Assembly (NCBI RefSeq): GCF_030013205.1
Contig: NZ_CP122648.1
Strand: one strand, 5' to 3'
DNA length: 64,000 nucleotides
From: Escherichia coli
GTDB taxonomy: Bacteria > Pseudomonadota > Gammaproteobacteria > Enterobacterales > Enterobacteriaceae
Shown: positions 19,301-22,300 of the stretch, piece by piece
Layout of the letters: each line of letters starts with the position of its first letter
Position numbering within the stretch: the first letter of the stretch is position 1
Program-made: the position numbers

Positions 19301-22300
19301 CTAATTATTTAAAATTAAAGCCATCCGGATGGTTTTCCAGGCTGCCGGTCAACGCCGCGAACAGCACCGTTTTACCATCAATCGAAAGCGCATCGTTCAC
19401 ATTCAACCAAGTGAGTTTCTCTTGCGACGTTTTCTCATCAATAGTCGAGAACAGCCCCGTCATCTGATTAGATTTCTCGGACCACATCACAGCGATACGT
19501 TGCGAGCCACAGTCATACGGTTTGCACGCGCTCATCACCTGATACGTCTCATCTCCCAACGTTACGGTTTGTGCGGGAGTATAAGTACCGCCTTTCATCA
19601 CCCATGCAGGTAGCTTATGCCCTTGCACCATCTGATTAAACGCAGCTTTGGTGGTTTCGCCCTTTGCAAGGCTGCTAATGGTTAAATCATCCTGCGCCAT
19701 TGCACTGGTGGCGATGACCAGAGCGGCGACTGTCGTTATTGCCTTAAACATCATTCCTCCCGAGCTTATCCTGCCCATGTTATTAACCTCCTAAAGCCTG
19801 GCGATAACACGATAATTTGCAAATCAGATATTTCCAATATCAGCATTTGTTATCAATTTATTCTGCGCTAAGGCAACTGCCTGATAAGGTGTTAGAGTTA
19901 TAAAACCCTTCGCATAAAGGAGTTGTACACCGTGCCTGGTTTGAAGATTACGCTTTTACAGCAACCACTGGTGTGGATGGATGGTCCTGCCAACCTGCGT
20001 CATTTTGATCGTCAACTGGAAGGTATTACCGGGCGCGATGTGATCGTTCTACCGGAGATGTTTACCAGCGGCTTTGCCATGGAAGCGGCAGCTTCGTCGC
20101 TAGCACAAGATGACGTAGTGAGCTGGATGACAGCCAAAGCGCAGCAGTGCAATGCGCTGATTGCAGGCAGTGTTGCATTACAAACGGAGTCTGGTTCGGT
20201 TAACCGCTTTTTGCTGGTTGAGCCGGGCGGCACGGTACATTTTTATGATAAGCGTCATCTGTTCCGCATGGCAGATGAGCATCTACATTATAAAGCGGGC
20301 AATGCGCGAGTGATTGTGGAATGGCGCGGCTGGCGTATTTTGCCGCTGGTGTGCTACGACTTACGTTTTCCTGTGTGGTCGCGCAATCTCAACGATTATG
20401 ACCTCGCCCTGTACGTCGCCAACTGGCCTGCTCCGCGCTCTCTGCACTGGCAGGCATTGCTGACGGCCCGCGCGATTGAGAATCAGGCGTATGTAGCGGG
20501 ATGCAATCGCGTCGGCAGCGATGGCAACGGCTGCCATTATCGCGGTGACAGCCGGGTGATTAATCCACAAGGCGAGATTATCGCTACTGCCGACGCGCAT
20601 CAGGCAACACGCATTGATGCGGAGCTGTCGATGATGGCATTGCGGGAATATAGAGAAAAGTTTCCGGCATGGCGGGATGCGGATGAGTTTAGGTTGTGGT
20701 GAGTGGGTGTTGTGTTTAGGGCCGGGGAGAGTCAGGGTAAGACTACGAAAGCCCGCTCCCTGCAAGGACTGACGCCAGGTAGTTTCTGTCCATGGCTGCT
20801 TTTCGCATCTTACGTCTTAACCCTGCCTTGAATACATTATCATTCGTTAAAATATTAATAGCGATGTGCCGTATCCCTGAAAATAATTCTGCTGCATTTC
20901 CTCTTCTTATTTTTCAGTCGTCTTTATTCATTACCACGTCCAGACGCCAGTGCAGCTTATTCTCCACGTGCCAGTGGTTTCGGATTGCTGTGGCGAACTT
21001 CTCTGCGGTTAAATCAGCAGAACTGATATAATATCTGACCGTCATTTCTGGCTCTTTCTTTTGTTCTGCTATTATTGACCGAAAGGAGACTGCCACACAT
21101 AATTTCTTCAGTCCTTTCCATTCAAACGTGAAATCAATAAGTTCATCAGGGACATCGCAAACAATATGAAGACGGATTTCTTCTCTGCCGTGACTCTTTT
21201 CACTAATGGCGTAACTGTCATGCTCTGGATTATTTAATTCTTTCAGTGGAAATTTTTCCTCAAAGGCTTTATTAAGCCGCCCCTGATTTCCTTTTACAGC
21301 GAATAAATAATCACCGCCCTGTTTTTGTATCTTCTCTGCAATATCTTTCTGGCAACCCATCGCATCAGTTGTGATGATTTTTCCTTTAATATCCAGCACG
21401 TTAAGAAGTTCAGGGATAGCTGTGATTTCATTGAATTTCTCATCCGTCCTGATCTGTCCGATGACCAGACTGTGCATTGTTGAGAACGCACTAATGACAT
21501 GAATCGCTCCCCTGCGGCGACTCTTGTCATAAGAATGCCGGAGCGTTTTTCCATCAATTGCAATGACGTCTTTATCATCTGAAGAATGGCAGTCACGCAT
21601 CCAGTTAATAAAGCACTCGTGAAATTTTGCAGGACTGATACAGGATACAACTCTGGCAATGGTATCGTGAACAGGAATACCATTTTCAAAATCACCGTAT
21701 TGTTTTAAAAAATCGAGATGTGTTTCCCCAAAATCCTCTATATCTTCCCAACCTTCTGCACCAGAAATAACGGCACAAATAGTCAACAGTAGAATATCCG
21801 ATAATTTATGTTCCACTTTCCAGGCTTGTCTGTAATCGGGAATAATAGAAATATGCTCCATCAATTTTTTAAGTTCCATTTTGTTCTCCTTAATTATGTA
21901 AGGAGTATTTGATCATGTATACGCAATAAAAAACAGCTTCAGGTAATGAGGAATATCTCAATTTTTAAGCATAAAATGCGAATTGTTTAGTACAAAAAAG
22001 CAGCGTTACGTGATCTTTCCCTGCACTTCACCCTAACTTTAATTTAACTTCAAGAAGTATTAAGGCCTCAATAGCGAACTTAATACTTCTTAAAGAATAT
22101 CACTCCTGACCAAAATCTTTCCACACTAATGCATGAGACTTTGATTTATCACCCAAAAATTTACTTACATCTTTCCAAAGTAAAGAATTGCTATCGGTCG
22201 CAGTGACTATTGCCTCTATAAGCCCTGTAGCTACAACTGTGGCCAATTCATCATCAATCGAGACCATACCATCTTCGACATGTTTAAATATTTTTTCTCT

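Follow-up and report, generated by a model that had tools for sequence, protein, structure and literature searches.

The H-repeat at the yafV side of the island

The window, by which we mean the whole 64-kb stretch of Escherichia coli DNA that was analysed, carries a T6SS/Rhs island that extends from an H-repeat (H-rpt) at 20733 to the tRNA-Asp gene aspV at 41641..41717. The H-repeat is the last component of this aspV-yafV island and lies next to yafV, in line with the original prediction, which had placed such an element at the yafV-side boundary. Toward yafV, the modules of the Rhs element follow each other in the order Rhs toxin tip, 125-aa putative immunity gene and H-repeat. No other H-rpt copies were found within the 64-kb window. 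The aspV-associated T6SS island has already been described in genome papers (PMC2941450; PMC5363993), and that on strain LF82 reports a yhhI transposase gene within it (PMC2941450).

Table 1. Positions in the window of yafV, of the H-repeat with its parts, and of the two sides of the K-12-type deletion.
Feature	Position	Strand	Remarks
yafV (2-oxoglutaramate amidase)	19932..20702	+	conserved chromosomal gene flanking the island
Complete H-repeat (H-rpt / ISEc1-type, ISAs1-family) IS	20733..22023	-	1,291 bp
Terminal inverted repeat, transposase 3' side	20733..20746	+	CAGGGTAAGACTAC read inward; overlaps the natural stop codon
Terminal inverted repeat, transposase 5' side	22010..22023	-	CAGGGAAAGATCAC read inward
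Full-length transposase gene	20743..21879	-	378 codons and natural TAG; pseudogene through one internal stop
Minus-strand ORF	20914..21879	-	321 codons and premature TGA (six-frame ORF list)
Premature TGA, codon 322	20914..20916	-	TGC (Cys) in intact copies
3' remainder of the transposase gene	20743..20913	-	56 in-frame sense codons and natural stop, without other lesions
H-rpt side of the K-12-type deletion	21019..21023	.	AGAAC, 5-bp microhomology; K-12 keeps 20733..21023
Far side of the K-12-type deletion	38833..38837	.	AGAAC, within the yafU-like ORF

Several smaller features of the island were recorded alongside. The 125-aa ORF (22100-22477, minus strand), whose product is presumed to be an immunity protein, is identical to WP_001077735.1 in other strains, and its match to Pfam DUF7674 is sub-threshold (20.7 bits, with a cut-off of 27). 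Between this ORF and the end of the H-repeat there is a 17-nt inverted repeat (22048-22095; 94% complementary, with a 14-nt loop). Between yafT and aspV lies an IS200C-type insertion (40876-41581, with a tnpA ORF within 40979-41488 on the minus strand) that is not present at that site in K-12 or AF40. Over 44 kb the window differs from strain K_EC180 by 3 mismatches and 1 indel, the latter of 1 bp at position 39180, at the 3' end of a yafU-like ORF (38260-39189); with just these four differences, the window stems from a strain very closely related to K_EC180, though not necessarily from K_EC180 itself.

The transposase ORF was found on the minus strand at exactly the positions predicted for it. 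Searches with its 321-aa product against Pfam matched DDE_Tnp_1_assoc (PF13808) at residues 8-94 (E 5e-34) and then DDE_Tnp_1 (PF01609) at residues 102-315 (E 2e-23). With NF033564, the NCBIfam model for transposases of the ISAs1 family, for which the cut-off is 70 bits, the score was 379.5 bits (E 1e-113) over profile positions 1-291 of 314. These matches far exceed chance, and with a score above the family cut-off and both domains in the expected order, the identification as an H-repeat transposase of the ISAs1 family is upheld. Intact copies encode 378 aa, so that the ORF ends 57 codons short of them, where 55-60 had been predicted. The distance from its end to the yafV stop (20702) is 211 bp, close to the predicted 210 bp. 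Of these, 171 bp belong to the rest of the gene and 10 bp to the IS terminus, and the other 30 bp are spacer.

The limits of the element were set by a three-way alignment of the window with two K-12 copies that have unrelated flanks, namely yhhI of RhsB and ydcC of RhsE. Homology among the three opens at CAGGGAAAGATCA and closes at ...TCTT(G/A)CCCTG. The 14-bp terminal inverted repeats delimited in this way are imperfect, with 11 of the 14 positions in agreement, and the 3' one begins 30 bp past the yafV stop. The interval thus has the 1,291 bp and both inverted repeats that define a complete-length copy. When its 1,291 bp were used as a query, records of a plasmid collection matched them end to end, over a span of exactly 1,291 bp in most of the matches listed. 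The outer flanks, GGGGAGAGT and CACTTCACC, share no direct repeat that could represent a target-site duplication, nor does the alignment show one around yhhI or ydcC in K-12. With no such duplication visible, the act of insertion appears to have left no mark at the window copy. A scan of the element for promoters and terminators returned counts no better than those of shuffled sequence.

The in-frame TGA and its distribution

Translation of 20743..21879 on the minus strand revealed one frame with a single internal stop at codon 322, followed by 56 sense codons and the natural stop. The change from TGC (Cys322) to TGA corresponds to G-to-T at plus-strand position 20914, a C-to-A transversion on the coding strand. 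In DNA alignments with four intact copies, all of which have TGC, the TGA was seen solely in the window copy, and the window DNA was collinear with the intact copies over the entire gene. The 56 residues after the TGA agree in full with the C-terminal end of the ISEc1 transposase of strain AF40, an intact protein of 378 aa. Moreover, when the TGA was replaced by Cys, the score of the protein against NF033564 was 409.1 bits and the match covered profile positions 1-314 of 314. Since all 378 codons are present in frame and the whole of the ISAs1 profile is covered, the gene is a nonsense mutant and not a truncated one. What it lacks is the single unbroken frame of 378 codons, owing to one TGA, and the element at 20733..22023 is a pseudogene copy within the ISAs1 family rather than a non-member. 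Independently, PGAP lists the identical sequence in K_EC180 (NZ_CP062203.1) as an "ISAs1 family transposase" of 1,137 bp and marks it as a pseudogene with "internal stop".

The description of the gene as 3'-truncated therefore fails, as the 3' part is present and in frame, and the TGA is its sole lesion. A full-length alignment had been named from the outset as the test of that description; it goes against truncation, with homology reaching the natural stop and the 3' inverted repeat. Assignment to the class of 3'-truncated IS remnants, which requires an early end of homology and a missing 3' repeat, was rejected, as neither is true here. More generally, an early ORF end is not evidence of a deletion: in the present case no DNA is missing, and a nonsense mutation specific to the lineage is what closes the frame.

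Of 5,426 complete E. coli genomes, 17 contain the exact 61-mer that spans the TGA. Each of the 17 is a swine isolate; several are designated ETEC and two are labelled O139:H1. These carriers are separately listed genome records, with submissions that include at least Korea, plus others. Another 4,400 genomes contain the same stretch at 95-99% identity. Downstream of the TGA no additional decay was detected. The rarity of the allele and the undecayed sequence behind it indicate that the mutation is young, and we conclude that it is recent and lineage-specific.

That a stable 321-aa product acts in trans on other H-rpt copies, or that low-level UGA read-through yields full-length transposase, is in our view very unlikely. 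For the first of these, the protein would be functional in some other way, for instance by inhibiting or regulating in trans the other genomic H-rpt copies. It still has its N-terminal domain and the greater part of the DDE core, and the genome has further matching places (5 for a 1,501-bp query in K_EC180); truncated transposases do inhibit in other IS families, as the Tn5 inhibitor protein does. Against such a role, the allele is rare and recent, without sign of selection, and there would be little to regulate, given that H-rpt transposition itself is unobserved (PMC3032704). We accordingly give it only a slim chance.

Slimmer still is the chance that the TGA is recoded, either as selenocysteine in the place of Cys322 or by Trp read-through, and that full-length transposase continues to be made. 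The codon replaced is one for Cys, as in Sec/Cys homologue pairs, the downstream frame is intact, and UGA is the leakiest stop codon of E. coli. However, an Rfam scan at a permissive E-value returned only two chance-level matches, so that no Rfam family, SECIS models included, matches the region. Folding of the 67 nt that start with the TGA gave no hairpin and a stability (-4.4 kcal/mol) not above that of shuffled sequence (z = 0.55). The downstream sequence is as in the TGC copies, so that no co-evolved SECIS is possible, and basal read-through would provide trace amounts at most. An error of sequencing or assembly in a transposase gene that is really intact is equally improbable: a single base does separate the window from intact copies, but the identical TGA 61-mer recurs in 17 separate swine genome records, and the change is a substitution and no homopolymer indel.

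The island edge and the K-12 deletion

From yafV to window position 21023, K-12 and the window run in parallel; there they diverge, and the K-12 segment continues at window position 38833, inside the yafU-like ORF (BLAST against the window). K-12 thus lacks window 21024..38837, or 17,814 bp, with the motif AGAAC shared by both sides. The 81-mer spanning the K-12 junction was found in 371 of 5,426 complete genomes. In the window that junction, in which a 3' fragment of the H-repeat is joined to yafU, is absent: across 21023/21024 the window follows the full-length copies without a break, and the partner of this point sits 17.8 kb off, at 38833.

The K-12 remnant yafF (b4503) is annotated with 189 bp and ends 40 bp from the yafV stop, the same gap that separates the end of the gene from yafV in the window. 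It represents the H-rpt copy of the window, at an identical place in the chromosome. In contrast to the window copy, however, only the 3'-terminal 291 bp of the element are left, fused to yafU, so that yafF is 5'-truncated; moreover, its codon 322 is TAC (Tyr) where the window has TGA. The comparison that had been made with yafF consequently stands as far as the origin from the same copy and locus is concerned, but not in its substance, as yafF is the complementary piece and retains the very 3' 291 bp that were thought to be missing. Nor does the ORF end mark a breakpoint of the K-12 deletion, as had been proposed; the breakpoint is 21023/21024, inside the element, and the stop codon, 107 bp away, has nothing to do with it. 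Both the relation of yafF to the full H-repeat and the exact K-12 deletion are hereby defined.

The reading of the locus as a remnant in which a deletion took the 3' inverted repeat together with 55-60 codons at the end of the gene, leaving an old, eroded edge at the K-12 breakpoint, has next to no probability: the ORF does stop early and yafF does exist at the locus, but the 171 bp past the TGA run in frame to the natural stop with the 3' inverted repeat there, PGAP gives the defect as "internal stop" and not as "incomplete", and K-12, with its breakpoint elsewhere, retains the 3' end.

The remnant had also been taken to date the island as old and eroded at its left edge. A stop allele confined to 17 swine isolates can neither date the island nor show such an edge, and this inference fails, the allele being rare and recent and the yafV edge intact. 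In a dedicated query, the junction of yafV and H-rpt was present in at least 3,233 of 5,426 genomes, and the case for an old insertion comes from this wide occurrence and not from the stop codon. A count of 4,914 of 5,426 genomes, obtained at ≥80% coverage of a 1,501-bp query, was dropped as a measure of the junction, as 86% of the query is already covered by any single H-rpt copy.

Decay is found inside the island. Relative to AF40, an internal deletion of ~5.3 kb (junction near 24658-24666) has removed hcp and vgrG along with 2.3 kb at the N-terminal end of rhs, and another of ~7.0 kb (junction near 37335-37337) has removed part of VasL, tssM, tssA, vasI and the 3' end of tssH. Moreover, tagH in the window contains an internal stop. 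The island is thus decayed internally, through two deletions and the tagH stop, while its yafV-side edge is intact. The T6SS of this lineage should be non-functional.

Taken together, we consider it highly probable that the locus contains a complete H-repeat with one young nonsense mutation in its transposase gene, at the yafV end of the aspV-yafV T6SS island. According to this explanation, a complete H-repeat, whose only gene is a minus-strand DDE transposase gene of 378 codons, would have been present beside yafV, a site that it occupies in many E. coli strains, and in a clade of swine E. coli, including ETEC-designated and O139:H1 isolates, one coding-strand C-to-A change would have closed the frame at codon 322. 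Translation would then end after 321 residues. The predicted product would keep DDE_Tnp_1_assoc and the putative catalytic residues D108, D172 and E306 (HWHVEN), and would lose the last 23 positions of the ISAs1 core and a 34-residue tail. The three residues are proposed as catalytic from IS4-like motifs; sequence search for a solved-structure homologue with which to place them produced nothing meaningful. Due to the loss of the last 23 core positions and of the tail, the 321-aa product is most probably an inactive transposase. The element is an ordinary and already annotated pseudogene copy of a long-known element, of little import beyond its correct annotation.

Comparison with other H-repeat copies

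Literature searches for ISEc1 matched mostly other names such as ISEc12. Transposition of H-rpt is reported never to have been observed (PMC3032704). Across loci and strains, the differences between H-repeat transposase genes are mainly synonymous (for example 22 versus 8, or 24 versus 5); the window and AF40 copies differ by 22 synonymous and 8 non-synonymous codons. As judged from these codon comparisons, the pattern points to purifying selection on the H-repeat transposase, though transposition is unobserved in the literature.

The K-12 copies yhhI (RhsB) and ydcC (RhsE) resemble the window element in their 1,291 bp, the same terminal inverted repeats and 378 codons, as well as in their position directly distal to an Rhs C-terminal tip and a small immunity-type ORF. 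Over the 1,137 nt of the gene, the window differs from them at 37-41 positions. With respect to these K-12 copies, the TGA at codon 322 and the lineage-specific substitutions S149F, M161V and E319K are the window's own. At the 3' inverted repeat the K-12 copies have CAGGGCAAGATTAC, which differs from that of the window at two positions.

In AF40 (NZ_OZ547043.1), which like PAI I of LF82 exemplifies the aspV T6SS island in complete form with an intact ISEc1 toward yafV, the island reads, in order, aspV, yafT, ..., hcp, VasL, tssM, tssA, vasI, tssH, ..., tssB, hcp, vgrG, rhs, immunity-type ORF, ISEc1 and yafV. The likeness to the window lies in the succession of vgrG, rhs, a 378-bp immunity-type ORF (WP_001077735.1), ISEc1 and yafV. 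Unlike in the window, there are 39 extra bp between yafV and the element, at the place that corresponds to window 20720-20733; in them the H-repeat terminus, made up of the inverted repeat and GAAAGCCCG, is repeated in tandem. The 3' repeat of the window resembles a hybrid of the first and last of the AF40-type repeats, which suggests that repeated IS events or recombination may have taken place at the yafV edge. As a separate observation, strain 266917_2 has a further ~345-bp 3' remnant of an IS256-family transposase between yafV and the end of the H-repeat. AF40, moreover, has an intact transposase and a T6SS that is complete except for a frameshifted VasL-domain gene, whereas the nonsense codon, the two internal island deletions and the tagH stop belong to the window.
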